From the sequence record NC_023593.1: DNA of 64,000 bases; one strand, written 5' to 3'. The notes beneath the pieces were generated by a model, which was not told the origin of the DNA, ran no database searches, and was given only the letters and a program-made list of their open reading frames with translations. Both the position numbers and the translations under genes were made by a program. Every line of letters begins with the position of its first letter. Position 1 is the first letter of the stretch. This document shows positions 55,477-58,670 of this stretch, piece by piece. Source of the DNA: Escherichia phage KBNP1711.

Positions 55477-57495
55477 TTAATTATGACCTTTACAGTGCAC
55501 TGAATCGCACACCACTTGATTGGTATTGTTTAGTGTGCAGAGTTCTGCATCACGCCACGGAATCTTTTTAAAACAGACTGCACAAAACCCCAAAGTAGAC
55601 CAGAGGGCTTTTGTGAAGGTTGCTGAACGGTTTCCATCGGAAGAGGCAACTGTTCTGGTAATTGAGACTTTTGACTCACGAAAGGTTTCCGCTACTGGAG
55701 CGGATTCCTCCTTTGGGGTAGTCACTGCAATAGCATAAATACCACCCCAACGCTTCTCAATGTAAGCACCGAATACATCTTCCAGAGTGATTTCACTCTT
55801 ACGCTTGGTTGAGGATTCCATGACAACCATGTTGTCCAGAATCTTTTGATCGACACGAAGAGCTACTTCAGGACGTCGAGCACTTGTTGTATCAACACAC
55901 TTAGTCCAAACATAACCCTCTTTCAGGGTGACTTGAGTTGCTTGCTTCTTTGCTTTATTAGCACAGATTTTACAAACATCGTCACCACGAAGTTTACTGA
56001 ACTCTTCATCAAATTCAAAGTCAGACTTCACTTCACCGCACACCGAACAAACACCGATAGGAATCTCATCCTCTTCAACGTCTTCTACTTGCTTCTGGAT
56101 AGAATCAAAACAAGCTTTATGCCAATATGCTTGGTATGCGAAGATTGCACTTGGGGCTTCTTTCCAGTCGATGTGCTTATCACAGCCACCACAATCACCA
56201 TGGGAATGGGCTTCCCAGAACTTACGAGTGATAGTCACCCCATTCTTGCTGACAAAACTATCCTCTGCATCAAAAGGGATATCATCATCGAAATCAGCTG
56301 TAGTGCTTTCCGGCTCCTTTTTCGACAAGTCAAAGAAGTGACCAGAGATCAACACCAAACGAATCATGCTATTAACTTCAGAAATACAGCCAACCGTACC
56401 ACGGTAAACCATATGCTTATTCTTAAGAGCAGCTTCGTAATCAGTTTGCAGGATGTTATGAACATCACCCTCAATATACTCTTGAGCTTTGTCATCATAA
56501 ATATAACCAACCATCTTACCGCGATCGGTATCTTTATAACAAACAAACTCGTGAGGAATAATATCAACCTGCATATCACGACGGATATCAACACCTTTGT
56601 CAGATGCGATCTTGTTTTGTTTCAAGATTGCTTCACGACGACGTACATCACCTGCGGTTACGCCGGGCTTTCTTTGCTCGTCGCTGTTCCCGTTTACGTA
56701 ACTTTTTATCCCGCTTGAGTGATTGTTGCTGTAGCTGTTCGAGTAATAACTTCCCCAACGCGTTGCTACCGTAAAAACCGGGAGTTCATGTACGACCTCC
56801 TCTACCAAAGTCATCTTGTTGTCAGAAACATCAAAGATGTACTCTGTACCGACTTTACACTCAAAGTGCTCATCGATTCGATTCTTGTGGCTCTTAGAAC
56901 GCTGAAGAATCCACATCAACATAGCTTCTTCTGAAGCACCAAACCATGAAGTTCCCAGACGGGCCAGATGGAATGGACGCTCATCGTTGCGAATGATGTG
57001 AAGACGGTTATCACTTGCATCATGCCAGATCAGAGTGAATGCACCATCCAACTTCTGAATAGTCTCTGCTGCACCAATCTTGTTAATAGAGTGGCAGATG
57101 TTCTCACTATCAACCTCAAAAACCTTACTGTCAGGCAGAAGGTCTTGATCAACTAAGGTTCCGTTATGAACCAGAGTGATGTTTCCGTGAGAGAATGGGT
57201 GAGCGTTACGTGAGTTAATAGCACCTTTCGTAGCATGTCGGCTATGACCAACAATCCATGAAGGAGGCACTGTGTAATTAGTAAGGCCAGTTGTCAGCTC
57301 GGTGTACTCTTTCTGTAACATGAAAGCATAGGAAGGTAGTGCTTCTTTGTAAGAGAACACAGATCTTTCGCTTTTACGCTGACCGAAAATACCAGTTGAG
57401 TGTTGACCACGAAATACACCAGCATAAAGAAGCTGGTTGTAAACATCTAAGTCATAACTTGAGAGGCTTCCACCTGCTAATACGATACCACAAAT
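55477..57495 (-). CDS. class-II (Ntn) glutamine amidotransferase fused to a Cys-rich C-terminal domain; probable AUU start
   Basis: Frame open upstream of track start 57360 encodes 'CGIVLAGG...FRGQHSTGI'; AGGTGG 7 nt before ATT. Confidence 0.55.
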   Translation of the reverse strand: MCGIVLAGGSLSSYDLDVYNQLLYAGVFRGQHSTGIFGQRKSERSVFSYKEALPSYAFMLQKEYTELTTGLTNYTVPPSWIVGHSRHATKGAINSRNAHPFSHGNITLVHNGTLVDQDLLPDSKVFEVDSENICHSINKIGAAETIQKLDGAFTLIWHDASDNRLHIIRNDERPFHLARLGTSWFGASEEAMLMWILQRSKSHKNRIDEHFECKVGTEYIFDVSDNKMTLVEEVVHELPVFTVATRWGSYYSNSYSNNHSSGIKSYVNGNSDEQRKPGVTAGDVRRREAILKQNKIASDKGVDIRRDMQVDIIPHEFVCYKDTDRGKMVGYIYDDKAQEYIEGDVHNILQTDYEAALKNKHMVYRGTVGCISEVNSMIRLVLISGHFFDLSKKEPESTTADFDDDIPFDAEDSFVSKNGVTITRKFWEAHSHGDCGGCDKHIDWKEAPSAIFAYQAYWHKACFDSIQKQVEDVEEDEIPIGVCSVCGEVKSDFEFDEEFSKLRGDDVCKICANKAKKQATQVTLKEGYVWTKCVDTTSARRPEVALRVDQKILDNMVVMESSTKRKSEITLEDVFGAYIEKRWGGIYAIAVTTPKEESAPVAETFRESKVSITRTVASSDGNRSATFTKALWSTLGFCAVCFKKIPWRDAELCTLNNTNQVVCDSVHCKGHN

Positions 57496-57569
57496 TTTCT
57501 AATCCACCTGAAGGGTAAACCCTTTCATCTAATTAACCTTTAATTGTGCCCCTTTCGAGGCACCCATTG

Positions 57570-58670
57570 TTACAGCAGTCGTTCTAACTGAATTTCCAAG
57601 TGGTCTGGAATATACTCAGTGACGTTGTTATCAGAGACGCCAGATTCACGCATCATGTTGAGCATGTTACGAATCTGCCCTTCTGTTGCTTCACGAGTTT
57701 CACTAATCTCTGTTTCATACAGAGCCATGATCTCGTTATGAACATCTTGAGCATTACCACGGACATATCCGAGGAAGCCATAGAAGTCAGACATATCACG
57801 AAGGGATACAACTACCGACCCACTACTATCAAGAGTTTGTAAACGAATACGCCCAACCTGACGCACAGATCGGTTACGACAGAACAGGATATCACGAGCC
57901 AGACGATAACCGCTATCAAGATCTTCGTGTCTTGGGGTGTAGTCCAGAGGTAGGTGCGGGAGCATAGGGTCAAAACGAACCCTGTTGAGCATCTCAACAA
58001 ACTCTTCATTGTCCATCTCTGCATTTTCAACTGCTAATTTCTTAAGAACCAAGAAGCGGTTTACCAGATTTAACAGCTGACCTTTCTTCCACTTAGGCTC
58101 TGAGATACGGAACTCAACAGAACCGAACTGAGCCAGAGGGAGTAGGTTGAGTGATGTGTACTTATCCCAACGGTCGACGATATGTCGGAAGAAGTTCTCA
58201 CCTTCGTAGTTAAATGCTTCAGAAGCGTTCATTACTTGAGCCTGAACCACTGCAAAAGCAGGACAGAAATTACTACGGTAACGGTGATAACCAGAGCACT
58301 TAAACATCAATGCTTCATAGAAAGTCCACCCAAGGATAACTTTCTTAACGATATTGCTATCAGCATCTCGCATATCCATATGAACGTGAGTGGAACATCG
58401 CCAAGTCCCTTCTGCTTCGGACTCCATCACTGCCTCACTCAGATTGTTGATAGCGTCAAACAGTTCTACACCATTGTAAGGGCGAGAACAGACCATTTCA
58501 CATCCGTTGCGAAGCGAGCCATCCTCTGTACATTCCCACATATCTGCTTCGATATGATCGTCACCTTCAAGCTCCAGCTCAATACCAATACCGCATTGGA
58601 ATGCGATACTCGGATGTGCTTCACTCAGACGATTACTACGGTATCCAAAAGCTTGCGCTACAGTTGTCAT
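57570..58670 (-). CDS. carboxylate-amine ligase (GCS2/YbdK-like amidoligase)
   Basis: 'GIGIELELEG', 'EDGSLRNGCEMV', 'STHVHMDM', cf. YbdK. Confidence 0.5.
   Translation of the reverse strand: MTTVAQAFGYRSNRLSEAHPSIAFQCGIGIELELEGDDHIEADMWECTEDGSLRNGCEMVCSRPYNGVELFDAINNLSEAVMESEAEGTWRCSTHVHMDMRDADSNIVKKVILGWTFYEALMFKCSGYHRYRSNFCPAFAVVQAQVMNASEAFNYEGENFFRHIVDRWDKYTSLNLLPLAQFGSVEFRISEPKWKKGQLLNLVNRFLVLKKLAVENAEMDNEEFVEMLNRVRFDPMLPHLPLDYTPRHEDLDSGYRLARDILFCRNRSVRQVGRIRLQTLDSSGSVVVSLRDMSDFYGFLGYVRGNAQDVHNEIMALYETEISETREATEGQIRNMLNMMRESGVSDNNVTEYIPDHLEIQLERLL

Follow-up and report, generated by a model that had tools for sequence, protein, structure and literature searches.

The gene for a class-II glutamine amidotransferase on the minus strand of the window (the whole stretch of 64,000 nucleotides of Escherichia phage KBNP1711 that was analysed) is very probably initiated at an AUU codon at 57495-57493, which is the best reading of its start that sequence comparison offers. 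This AUU would belong to a conserved arrangement of a hairpin, a strong Shine-Dalgarno (SD) sequence and an AUY codon, and we consider this explanation as a whole to be quite probable. In a survey of phage homologues, the hairpin was exclusively tied to AUY starts, and hairpin, strong SD and AUY together form what is apparently an undescribed translation-control cassette. The assignment of the start draws on comparative data.

Mechanical ORF calling had placed the start at GTG 57358..57360 (mechanical ORF 55477..57360), which we regard as an internal Val codon and not a start. An earlier note on this DNA had pointed out that the frame remains open for 45 codons 5' of GTG 57360, up to an ATT that comes directly after an in-frame TAG (57499..57501) and AAA (57498-57496), and this layout was confirmed. 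On the minus strand, the sequence reads TAG AAA ATT TGT(Cys) GGT ATC GTA, and the N-terminus encoded is C-G-I-V-L-A-G-G...FRGQHSTGIFGQ. The TAG lies two codons 5' of the TGT (57490..57492) of the catalytic Cys1, which would act as the N-terminal nucleophile after Met removal. Only AAA and ATT (57493..57495) stand between TAG and Cys1; the note was thus right that neither ATG nor GTG nor TTG is found there. Translated from the ATT, the full-length class-II (Ntn) amidotransferase gene covers 55477..57495 with the stop included and has 671 sense codons from Cys1. The SD AGGTGGA, which the note had placed 7 nt 5' of the ATT, was located at 57509-57503; the spacer is TTAGAAA, and the SD pairs with the 16S tail at a duplex energy of -7.2 kcal/mol. 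On the 5' side of the amidotransferase lies an amidoligase gene (Amidoligase_2; 57570..58670, minus strand), whose stop, in another frame, is located 74 nt 5' of the ATT. A hairpin (GTGCCTC-GAAA-GGGGCAC, 57546..57563, minus strand) folds just 3' of this stop, and its pairing is maintained across three genera although the stem sequence varies. Three features of the locus go beyond the earlier note, namely a mini-ORF with an in-frame ATG (57528-57526), a leader hairpin, and the conservation of the leader, which exceeds that of any other part of the locus.

Judged by profiles and catalytic residues, the protein is a class-II (Ntn) glutamine amidotransferase of predicted activity. It matched Pfam GATase_6 (53.1 bits, cutoff 27; 4.4e-14) and GATase_7 (28.5 bits vs cutoff 25), and its profile matched the glutaminase domain of GlmS (1xff, E=2e-8), with PurF and AsnB also among the matches. 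Residues C1, G2, I3, V4, R28-G29, R85, T88, N110-G111 and D128 are invariant in the alignment (A1), and in the alignment to 1xff the phage R85, T88, N110-G111 and D128 pair with R73, T76, N98-G99 and D123 of GlmS. The sequence elements expected of class II were found: CG[IL]V with Cys1, the glutamine-binding Arg/Thr, the oxyanion-hole Asn-Gly and the amine-binding Asp. An Ntn amidotransferase without Cys1 is inactive. That Cys1, Arg, Asn-Gly and Asp are all invariant contradicts the idea of an enzyme expressed without its nucleophile, which had previously been judged unlikely.

The triplets TAG-AAA-ATT were present in all 25 of the independently sequenced loci examined (EP335, Bas89, ECBP2, SU7, phiEco32, SU10, NJ01, Bas93, Aeromonas phage BUCT695 and metagenome contigs), and the TAG was invariant in all of them even when the pattern search left the TAG positions free. 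The 74-nt region was found in 95 phage records at no less than 95.9% identity, while neighbouring genes are about 70% identical. As for the orthologue starts, which the note had suggested comparing, the Cys-Gly-Ile-Val N-terminus is present, and six distant cultured orthologues read ATG-TGT, with ATG at the codon homologous to ATT. Within codons 1-45 (Cys to GTG), variable columns number 12, 7 and 35 at codon positions 1, 2 and 3, and the rest of the gene behaves likewise; as most of the variation falls on third positions, the codons 5' of the GTG must be translated. Conservation of the ATT, the orthologous ATG at the same codon and this coding-type substitution all support the AUU initiation that had been proposed. 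Mass spectrometry of SU10 identified 9 peptides of gp85, the orthologue in that phage (SU10 study). N-terminal peptides were not reported in that proteomic work, and the mass expected there for gp85, 63.8 kDa, suggests the use of a shorter gene model in the search. In E. coli, AUU and AUC reach 1-2% of AUG initiation, and the N-terminal residue is Met nonetheless (Hecht et al.).

We surveyed start codons and leaders in 124 non-redundant phage homologues, retained only if their aligned N-terminus begins with Cys. The codon before Cys1 was ATG in 91 homologues, ATT in 18, ATC in 7 and TTG in 7, with a TGC codon as the single exception. ATT or ATC thus precedes Cys1 in about a fifth of the set (25/124), and these cases are spread over many separate branches. 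An in-frame stop upstream, with no canonical start, was present in 22 of the 25. Hairpins were scored when they had at least 5 bp and a 3' end at -19 to -11 (observed ends, -13 to -16); they were found in 17 of the 25 ATT/ATC leaders as opposed to none of the 91 ATG and none of the 7 TTG leaders. Controls with ATG or TTG and enough intergenic room had none either (0/48), and shuffled ATT/ATC leaders had one in 5.7% of cases. The covarying hairpins of these 17 leaders consist of 5-7 bp, end 13-16 nt 5' of the start and adjoin a strong SD. As 8 of the 25 leaders have no clear hairpin, it is not obligatory. When each of 18 ATT/ATC lineages was paired with its nearest other-start relative on the basis of a rough distance analysis, the hairpin was present in 12 versus 0. 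In the covariation alignment, which had been fitted to the model, 92% of cells were paired (51% after shuffling) and the score was 0.82 vs 0.20, a value reached in 0 of 500 shuffles. A model trained on 7 Zobellviridae-like leaders only found the leader of the window at E=0.003, and no ATG leader was found by it below E=0.1.

The SD is also stronger in ATT/ATC leaders (median -8.4 kcal/mol) than in ATG leaders (-6.1). The upstream stop was at -14 or further in 25 of 25 ATT/ATC leaders; stops never come nearer than this, so that these genes are uncoupled from the upstream gene, and coupling was rejected as a route to AUY for this reason. Natural cassette swaps with identical flanks were observed between Asterion/L150 and L145, and between O4 and PA11: in near-identical genes, the entire hairpin-SD-ATT cassette is exchanged for a plain SD-TTG. 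Asterion and L150 have the hairpin followed by GGAGGA and ATT, where L145 has AGAGG and TTG. Such exchange might mean shared ancestry of cassettes and, consequently, fewer independent events.

At the locus itself, we aligned 3.5 kb of 7 phages that belong to 3 genera. The longest run without variation is a block of 55 nt (57488..57542, minus strand), which comprises the leader, the ATT and TGTGG. The next longest run is 21 nt, and the genes flanking the block are 68-76% identical in the same alignment. This leader arrangement is far beyond chance. The leader hairpin (AAGGGT-TT-ACCCTT, 57511..57524, minus strand) adjoins the SD on its 5' side, has pair probabilities of about 0.7 in the folding ensemble and coincides in position with the covarying hairpin of the other ATT/ATC leaders; in model R1, the SD AGGTGGA is aligned to GGAGGAU. 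Hairpin and SD both lie inside the mini-ORF (57499..57528, minus strand), which has 9 codons (ATG AAA GGG TTT ACC CTT CAG GTG GAT TAG, MKGFTLQVD*), is in frame with the amidotransferase and has the in-frame TAG as its stop. In BUCT695, the mini-ORF reads MKGLTLQAD*; it does not occur in the other ATT/ATC lineages and, being confined to the E. coli clade and BUCT695, was rejected as a general feature.

Several other roles of the leader were considered. In this leader, the SD is sequestered in an alternative fold with an ensemble probability of about 26%; BUCT695 breaks this fold, and an SD-sequestering switch was therefore rejected as a general mechanism. A scan of 57380-57640 against Rfam 15 gave two sub-threshold matches only (17.7 and 16.2 bits vs gathering thresholds of 44 and 45), both on the strand opposite to the gene; a known RNA family or riboswitch was rejected, these matches being insignificant and on the wrong strand. 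A promoter in the leader is unlikely, since a sigma-70 scan found none there on the strand of the gene, the leader sequence is unique within the window, and the phiEco32 gp36-dependent motif tAATGTATAtA, which is located 6-8 nt 5' of the transcription start (quoted in the SU10 paper), is absent from it. No intrinsic terminator was called at the leader hairpin, which has no U-tract on its 3' side. Pattern scans of viral_contigs and metagenomes for the E. coli-type leader returned close relatives only. A scan for the cassette at other genes with model R1, which includes the first Cys-Gly codons and is biased toward the amidotransferase gene, gave one significant match each in the O4 genome and in the window.

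We propose the following model. The 30S subunit would bind the SD AGGUGG(A) 7 nt 5' of the AUU at 57495-57493, and the initiator tRNA would decode AUU as fMet. Deformylase and methionine aminopeptidase would then strip the Met, exposing Cys1 as N-terminal nucleophile; such removal is to be expected because Cys is a permitted second residue. According to the model, AUU would be a deliberately weak, IF3-discriminated start codon and part of a conserved cis cassette in which a hairpin, a strong SD, a spacer of 7 nt and AUY are combined, standing in for the ordinary SD-AUG leader of relatives or for their tight coupling to the upstream gene. The hairpin beside the SD may keep the SD exposed and/or anchor the mRNA on the 30S platform, which would make the weak codon workable, and the AUY codon may keep output low or host-state-dependent, independently of upstream translation. 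In this clade, the mini-ORF may be a source of terminating ribosomes for the AUU 3 nt further on, or it may compete with them. This action of the hairpin is what we infer for it, and it could serve otherwise, in RNA stability, processing or protein binding. A stronger version of the model is possible, but we hold it only tentatively and are inclined to doubt it as a whole. Hairpin, SD and AUY would then constitute a dedicated cis initiation element, in which a hairpin defined by its structure alone docks next to the SD/anti-SD helix of the 30S platform to license or tune AUU/AUC initiation against IF3 proofreading, and phages would trade the cassette to set amidotransferase output. The start codon of the amidotransferase could not move in this version, since the next residue is the catalytic nucleophile.

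The E. coli genes infC (IF3) and pcnB (poly(A) polymerase I) likewise have an SD-dependent AUU start which is read as Met by the initiator tRNA and is conserved among orthologues. The weak, IF3-discriminated AUU keeps pcnB output low and makes infC IF3-sensitive. Three features of an AUU start of this type were found in the phage gene: a forced start position, the SD distance, and conservation among orthologues with AUG elsewhere. While infC and pcnB are single host genes, phage AUU/AUC starts recur on many branches, accompanied by an SD-adjoining covarying hairpin; to our knowledge, a hairpin of this kind is not part of the descriptions of infC or pcnB. SD-adjacent structures that resemble the phage leader hairpin are the T4/RB69 gene 43 operator, the thrS operator and the rpsO pseudoknot on the 30S platform. 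The likeness consists in a short hairpin 5' of the SD, a fixed distance to the start and possible contact with the 30S platform. However, those elements, which serve repressor binding or entrapment, are conserved in sequence and stand upstream of AUG genes, whereas in the phage cassette it is structure and position that are conserved and tied to AUY. The promoter-early stem-loops (PeSLs) of T4-type phages are also short stem-loop regulatory cassettes swapped between near-identical phage genomes; PeSLs carry promoters and mediate gene shuffling, whereas the amidotransferase cassette contains a ribosome-binding site together with a start codon and, in the O4 genome and the window, was found at one gene only.

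The AUU could alternatively be reached by termination and reinitiation: ribosomes would start at the mini-ORF AUG (57528), read its 9 codons across hairpin and SD, stop at the UAG and, held by the SD, reinitiate at AUU 3 nt on. AUU would remain the start codon in this case, with recycled ribosomes in place of de novo binding of the 30S subunit. The conservation of the mini-ORF ATG and TAG in all members of the E. coli clade and in BUCT695 is consistent with this, as are the position of the mini-ORF stop 3 nt before the AUU and the invariance of the 16 nt 5' of the mini-ORF ATG, including AAAGG. Synonymous changes are missing from all eight sense codons that follow its ATG, a pattern that fits stacked constraints. 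We nevertheless consider reinitiation unlikely, as the hairpin-SD-AUY layout of other ATT/ATC lineages comes with no comparable mini-ORF, and as ATT/ATC genes are uncoupled, the end of the upstream gene never being nearer than -14. Furthermore, the mini-ORF ATG stands at the foot of the hairpin, the ATG of BUCT695 is not preceded by an SD-like sequence, and both differences in the BUCT695 mini-ORF alter the encoded residue (F to L, V to A).

It is similarly improbable that AUU is the start while the hairpin is unrelated to it, i.e. that it serves RNA processing or stability, weakly terminates transcription after the upstream gene or is the operator for an RNA-binding repressor, and was co-inherited with AUY. 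Translational operators composed of a hairpin and an SD are known, for example at T4 gene 43. The phage hairpins usually lie within a few nucleotides 3' of the upstream stop codon, GGAGGAUAR-like spacers are common to ATT/ATC leaders, and leaders are exchanged as cassettes, so that linkage by descent is possible. On the other hand, the stems are wholly different between lineages while their 3' end is fixed at -13 to -16 from the start codon, and this fixed position despite differing stems speaks for selection acting on the geometry with respect to the ribosome-binding site. A co-inherited element is also at odds with the lack of hairpins in all 48 ATG/TTG leaders with room for one; neither a U-tract nor a called terminator speaks for termination, and at least 12 unrelated stem sequences are hard to square with a sequence-specific protein operator.

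Amber readthrough is far less credible. Here translation would start at ATG 57528, UAG 57501 would be read, and the resulting propeptide MKGFTLQVD-X-KI (12 residues) would be removed autocatalytically, as in PurF. Propeptides are real in this superfamily: the Bacillus subtilis-type PurF and GltS, with Cys as mature residue 1, have a canonical start and a propeptide cleaved after conserved acidic residues, and the cellular PurF-like relatives that we retrieved have N-terminal extensions before Cys. The conserved in-frame relation of the mini-ORF to the amidotransferase and the A directly 3' of the UAG would also suit readthrough. Yet the phage gene differs from the propeptide type in its in-frame TAG two codons before Cys, in a family that is otherwise Met-Cys; no continuous frame leads from a canonical start, and no acidic residues stand before Cys. 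Cellular propeptides end in H-E/D-E|C (GAA or GAG directly precedes the Cys codon in 20 of 31 relatives), whereas K-I|C would be expected here. All but one of the Cys-starting homologues that reach residue 1 have a start-type codon before Cys and none has a propeptide, a canonical start upstream is missing from 22 of 25 ATT/ATC leaders, and AAA and ATT are both without synonymous variation. A suppressor tRNA was not found: the window contains no tRNA, the closest genome has only tRNA-Arg(TCT), and of the 82 long ORFs in the window, 9 end with TAG. When no suppressor is present, basal readthrough of UAG stays below the level of initiation at AUU.

Scarcely tenable is a downstream canonical start (GTG 57360 here, ATG in ECBP2, SU7 and BUCT695), which would yield a protein without Cys1 and leave the upstream frame non-functional. 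GTG 57360 is the first canonical start to follow the in-frame TAG, and the gene is so annotated in EP335, ECBP2, SU7, BUCT695, O4 and Asterion. Against this stand the coding-type substitution in the 45 upstream codons and the invariance of Cys1 and of the R-G motif at residues 28-29 across the family; moreover, the codon used varies by genus and is missing at the same place in others, and no SD precedes GTG 57360. A sequencing or assembly error, for which the earlier note had advised a check, or a decaying pseudogene can be dismissed, since only the rarity of ATT starts speaks for either, whereas the same ATT occurs in all 25 of the independently sequenced loci and in about 95 records, the frame of 671 codons is uninterrupted and subject to purifying selection, and the orthologous protein was detected in SU10.

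Initiation at AUU within the hairpin-SD-AUY cassette thus remains our preferred reading. For this clade, the ATT start is not a new discovery, as it is annotated in GenBank for phiEco32 phi32_83, SU10_085 and the BASEL phages Bas89 and Bas93 (Bas89_0080, Bas93_0070), all of which have the same gene, leader and ATT. A limited literature search found no discussion of the start codon, conserved leader, mini-ORF or hairpin of the phiEco32-type gene, and a limited full-text search found none of hairpin-linked AUU/AUC starts. What is new is that AUU/AUC starts recur more widely across the enzyme family, together with a covarying hairpin. Among the matches listed for the 74-nt region, the CDS reaches the ATT in only 9 of 60 records. 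Most database records of the enzyme, including EP335, ECBP2, SU7, BUCT695, Pseudomonas phage O4 and Klebsiella phage Asterion, have a truncated annotation without the nucleophile. Gene callers limited to ATG, GTG and TTG remove the catalytic Cys, so that the deposited proteins look like dead enzymes.

Hecht et al. (2016) stated that no more than two non-canonical starts had been confirmed in E. coli. The occurrence of AUU and AUC at an unambiguous start position in one phage enzyme family offers a testable hypothesis on usable or regulatory weak starts, and the natural swaps between hairpin-SD-ATT and SD-TTG provide ready-made experimental pairs. As Cys must be residue 1, the family reveals the identity of the start codon without proteomics, and it could be used to calibrate the start-codon models of phage gene finders. 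If the cassette is indeed a dedicated initiation element, Ntn amidotransferases would be a natural reporter, and non-AUG initiation in phages would be far commoner than annotation suggests.

The glutamine amidotransferase gene considered here lies on the minus strand (55477..57495) of a phiEco32-like podophage (Gordonclarkvirinae; 98% identity to Escherichia phage EP335 and KarlSchell_Bas89), within the known amidoligase/COOH-NH2 ligase/ATP-grasp gene cluster as recognized by Pfam. From 57528, the minus strand reads ATG AAA GGG TTT ACC CTT CAG GTG GAT TAG AAA ATT TGT GGT ATC GTA TTA GCA GGT GGA. The earlier note had proposed that translation starts at the AUU, and its description of the locus was accurate in all details. 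GTG 57360 is the first canonical start past the stop, and mechanical ORF calling begins there; the frame is open for another 45 codons upstream, up to ATT 57495-57493. On the minus strand this ATT is preceded by AAA and an in-frame TAG (57501-57499) and followed by a Cys codon and GIVLAGG...FRGQHSTGIFGQ, and AGGTGGA is found 7 nt 5' of it (57509-57503). Three features were absent from that description: the TAG ends an in-frame 9-codon mini-ORF (MKGFTLQVD, then stop) opening at ATG 57528, a hairpin AAGGGT-TT-ACCCTT (57524-57511) lies inside this mini-ORF directly 5' of the Shine-Dalgarno (SD) sequence, and the entire leader is extraordinarily conserved. Another hairpin, GTGCCTC-GAAA-GGGGCAC (57546-57563, minus strand), is located 6 nt past the amidoligase stop. 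Its stem sequence varies by genus with pairing retained (ECBP2 GCGCTC...GGGCGC; phiEco32 GTGCCTC-TGATAAA-GGGGCAC), and the nucleotides after it form no U-tract; between the amidoligase and amidotransferase genes it may serve in RNA stability or processing. The Bas89 annotation (locus L002, 1-910 and 4735-5244) joins the COOH-NH2 ligase CDS from two pieces, with an HNH endonuclease gene where they meet, which suggests an intron-like insertion, and a second HNH endonuclease replaces two small ORFs present downstream of the amidotransferase in EP335 and the window.

The product scores 53 bits against Pfam GATase_6 (cutoff 27) and, as a profile, matches the glutaminase domains of GlmS (1xff, E=2e-8), PurF and AsnB. 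Across ten aligned phage homologues, C1, G2, I3, V4, R28-G29, R85, T88, N110-G111 and D128 are invariant; R85, T88, N110-G111 and D128 align with GlmS R73, T76, N98-G99 and D123. The latter are the catalytic set of class-II (Ntn) amidotransferases, and a product begun at GTG 57360 would lack the nucleophile. Methionine aminopeptidase removes Met ahead of Cys.

TAG-AAA-ATT is present in all 25 loci with the window-type leader, among them EP335, Bas89, ECBP2, SU7, phiEco32, SU10, NJ01, Bas93, Aeromonas phage BUCT695, one uncultured IMG/VR viral contig and six metagenome contigs; the pattern used to search metagenomes left these nine positions free. In the phage collection, the surrounding 74-nt region has 95 matching records at 95.9-98.8% identity and two Aeromonas phages at 88%. 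A sequence error is ruled out by the ATT in all 25 loci together with the 95 near-identical records. Seven phages of three genera were aligned over 3.5 kb; the longest stretch without variation is 55 nt (57542-57488, positions -50 to +4 counted from the Cys codon), the second longest is 21 nt, and the amidoligase and amidotransferase coding sequences are just 68-76% identical to the window. The first variable site beyond the 55 nt is the third position of Gly2. By codon position (1/2/3), codons 1-45 have 12/7/35 variable columns, the same pattern as in the 200 codons 46-245 (43/30/147), and the Cys-to-GTG segment is therefore under purifying selection as protein. Since the SU10 orthologue was detected by mass spectrometry (9 peptides, 23.7% coverage; PMC4281155), the gene is expressed. 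The expected mass of SU10 gp85 was given as 63.8 kDa (PMC4281155, Table 2); the CDS as now deposited starts from ATT and has 676 residues (2031 nt), roughly 75 kDa by estimate. The proteomics search database probably contained a truncated gp85 model, in which case no peptide from the actual N-terminus could have been matched.

ATG-TGT-GG stands at the homologous codon in six cultured relatives (five genera), whose annotated CDSs begin one codon before Cys. The nearest ATG-type relatives of the E. coli clade (L033, L034 and L037; 63-67% amino-acid identity) have the leader TTTAAATGTAAATTAGAGGATGTATTAA-ATG, with no hairpin. Because of the ATG in orthologues, the in-frame stop two codons upstream and the SD, AUU is by far the best reading of the start codon, in support of the proposed interpretation. 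In E. coli reporters, AUU/AUC initiation reaches 1-2% of AUG and N-terminal Met is still made (Hecht et al., bioRxiv 063800). The ATT start has been deposited for phiEco32 phi32_83, SU10_085, Bas89_0080 and Bas93_0070 (the BASEL authors used orthologues to refine annotations), while mutually different downstream starts are annotated in EP335, ECBP2, SU7 and BUCT695; among the 60 matches listed for the 74-nt region in the phage collection, only nine have a CDS reaching the ATT. Amidotransferase CDSs of Pseudomonas phage O4 (L276, 42142-42253), Klebsiella phage Asterion (L113, 398-449), BUCT695 (L016, 650-683), L001, L003 and L004 begin 10-45 codons too late and lack the catalytic Cys. Such late starts are a systematic error of gene callers restricted to ATG, GTG and TTG. 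Limited literature searches found no discussion of this start codon or leader.

We surveyed the enzyme family using viral-contig loci fetched with two protein profiles, to which cultured phages were added, and obtained 124 non-redundant leaders whose alignment begins at Cys1. The codon before Cys1 is ATG in 91, ATT in 18, ATC in seven, TTG in seven and TGC in one; no ATA occurs among the 25 ATT/ATC leaders. These include Pseudomonas phage O4 (Zobellviridae; GGAGGATAAAATT-ATC-TGT) and Klebsiella phage Asterion (GGAGGATAATACT-ATT-TGC), both annotated from a downstream codon. An in-frame stop without an intervening canonical start is found upstream in 22 of the 25, the remaining three having a TTG or ATG within or beside the hairpin. 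On a neighbour-joining tree, ATT/ATC cases occupy at least five or six branches, each with ATG sisters. Several ATT/ATC leaders contain consecutive in-frame ATY pairs (ATT ATC, ATT ATT) at -6..-1, and many have a stop triplet right after the SD (GGAGGA-TAG/TAA at -7); L110, L085, L089, L101, L125, L132 and L143 were noted for these features. A start at the first of two ATY codons would yield Met-Ile-Cys, not processable to Cys1. The control set of distant cellular relatives consists of PurF-like enzymes that solve the Cys1 problem in another way, through true propeptides with the terminal signature H-E/D-E|C, which the phage amidotransferases here do not have. Among the cellular relatives, L197-L275 (genome contigs of Alphaproteobacteria, Entotheonella and Asgard archaea) have N-terminal propeptides ending in a conserved ...D-x-x-H-E/D-E before Cys, the archaeal ones in E/D-H before CAIFGV.

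A hairpin (at least 5 bp, at least 2 G-C pairs, at most 1 G-U, loop of 3-8 nt, 3' end at -19 to -11) was present in 17/25 ATT/ATC leaders and in none of 91 ATG leaders, seven TTG leaders, or 48 ATG/TTG controls whose intergenic gap of 25 nt or more could accommodate it; in shuffled ATT/ATC leaders it appeared in 5.7%. Every observed hairpin ends at -13 to -16, flush with the SD. The association (Fisher p ~1e-14, without phylogenetic correction) is stable across criteria. As a control for ancestry, 18 ATT/ATC lineages less than 70% identical to one another were each paired with the nearest relative having another start; 12 have the hairpin, versus none of the partners (sign test ~5e-4). The stem sequences are unrelated (AAGGG/CCCTT, GAACCT/AGGTTC, AAAGCC/GGCTTT, AACCTC/GAGGTT, GAGGTC/GACCTC, GCCC/GGGC, ACGAC/GTCGT, AGAGT/ACTCT, GACTC/GAGTC, GTAGCC/GGCTAC, GCTTC/GAAGC). 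A covariance model trained on seven Zobellviridae-like leaders finds the window leader at exactly 57527-57488 (E=0.003 in 203 kb), as well as BUCT695, L148, L093, L061 and L085, none of them in the training set, and no ATG leader below E=0.1. In the model-fitted alignment, which somewhat inflates the numbers, 92% of cells are paired versus 51% in shuffles, double changes occur at 6/6 pairs (46 cells versus 14), and the covariation score is 0.82 versus 0.20 in shuffles and 0.04-0.23 in slid registers, with 0/500 shuffles as high. The SD is also stronger in ATT/ATC leaders (median -8.4 versus -6.1 kcal/mol). Their upstream stop lies at -14 or further in 25/25 cases, indicating no tight coupling; it lies within 9 nt in 31 of the 69 ATG leaders having an upstream ORF.

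Natural swaps between relatives were also found. The upstream (...AAATAAATAAG) and downstream (TGCGGACTCG...) flanks are the same in Asterion, L150 and L145, as are the protein N-termini; the segment they enclose is CAAAGCC-TGT/ACA-GGCTTTCGGAGGATAATACT-ATT in Asterion and L150 and AGAGGTTTAAT-TTG in L145. Only the 3-nt loop distinguishes the Asterion and L150 cassettes: one has TGT and the other its perfect reverse complement, ACA, a pattern resembling a DNA-level inversion of the palindromic hairpin. The O4 and PA11 proteins are 99% identical; O4 has the hairpin and ATC, PA11 has TTGGAGGTGCAAT-TTG and lacks the hairpin. An inserted 73-codon ORF in L082 is headed by a complete cassette that includes ATC and the first seven amidotransferase codons, and the real amidotransferase starts with TTG 7 nt past the stop of this ORF. 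Within L082:150-400, the relic cassette comprises the hairpin CAGCTATAAGCTG, AAGGAACTATT and ATC TGT GGA TTA GTA GGT GTT G; the ORF is of unknown function and the first amidotransferase codons are duplicated. The arrangement resembles an insertion that picked up the cassette and duplicated its target. From these swaps it follows that the hairpin, strong SD and AUU/AUC (AUY) behave as one exchangeable unit.

Only the E. coli phages and BUCT695 have the mini-ORF and a wholly unvarying 55-nt block, in which even the hairpin stem, free to covary elsewhere, is frozen. BUCT695 is a member of a different family, Grimontviridae, and its amidotransferase shares just 55% identity, no closer than the Privateervirus proteins, which have ATG. 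The shared leader was either transferred as a cassette or is held by several overlapping constraints (peptide, hairpin, SD and stop). Ribosomes reinitiating after the mini-ORF are a less probable but plausible route to the AUU. Amber readthrough of the TAG to give a propeptide is highly improbable: the TAG is a working stop, no suppressor tRNA was found in the window and the closest genome, propeptides are absent from this phage amidotransferase family, and other ATT/ATC lineages lack the upstream start.

The non-canonical start is well supported and of a known kind, non-AUG initiation, and in the window's clade it is not new, as GenBank already has it; the novel part appears to be the family-wide hairpin-SD-AUY cassette. 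The comparisons establish where the start lies and that it is conserved, that AUY recurs, and that a covarying hairpin accompanies AUY starts and no others. This hairpin, conserved in structure alone, abuts the SD on its 5' side at a constant spacing from the start codon, a geometry that points towards a role in ribosome binding. In the window, the SD-exposing hairpin has an ensemble probability of ~0.7 and an SD-sequestering alternative (GGUUUACC/GGUGGAUU) ~0.26; the latter was rejected as a conserved switch, for BUCT695 breaks that fold. As for the mechanism, we can only tentatively suggest that the hairpin may prevent pairing of the SD, stack against the SD/anti-SD helix or dock onto the 30S platform. 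In each case the 30S subunit would stay longer on the mRNA, allowing the weak AUY-anticodon pairing to survive IF3 proofreading, and AUY might set a low or IF3-sensitive output of the amidotransferase, independent of upstream translation.
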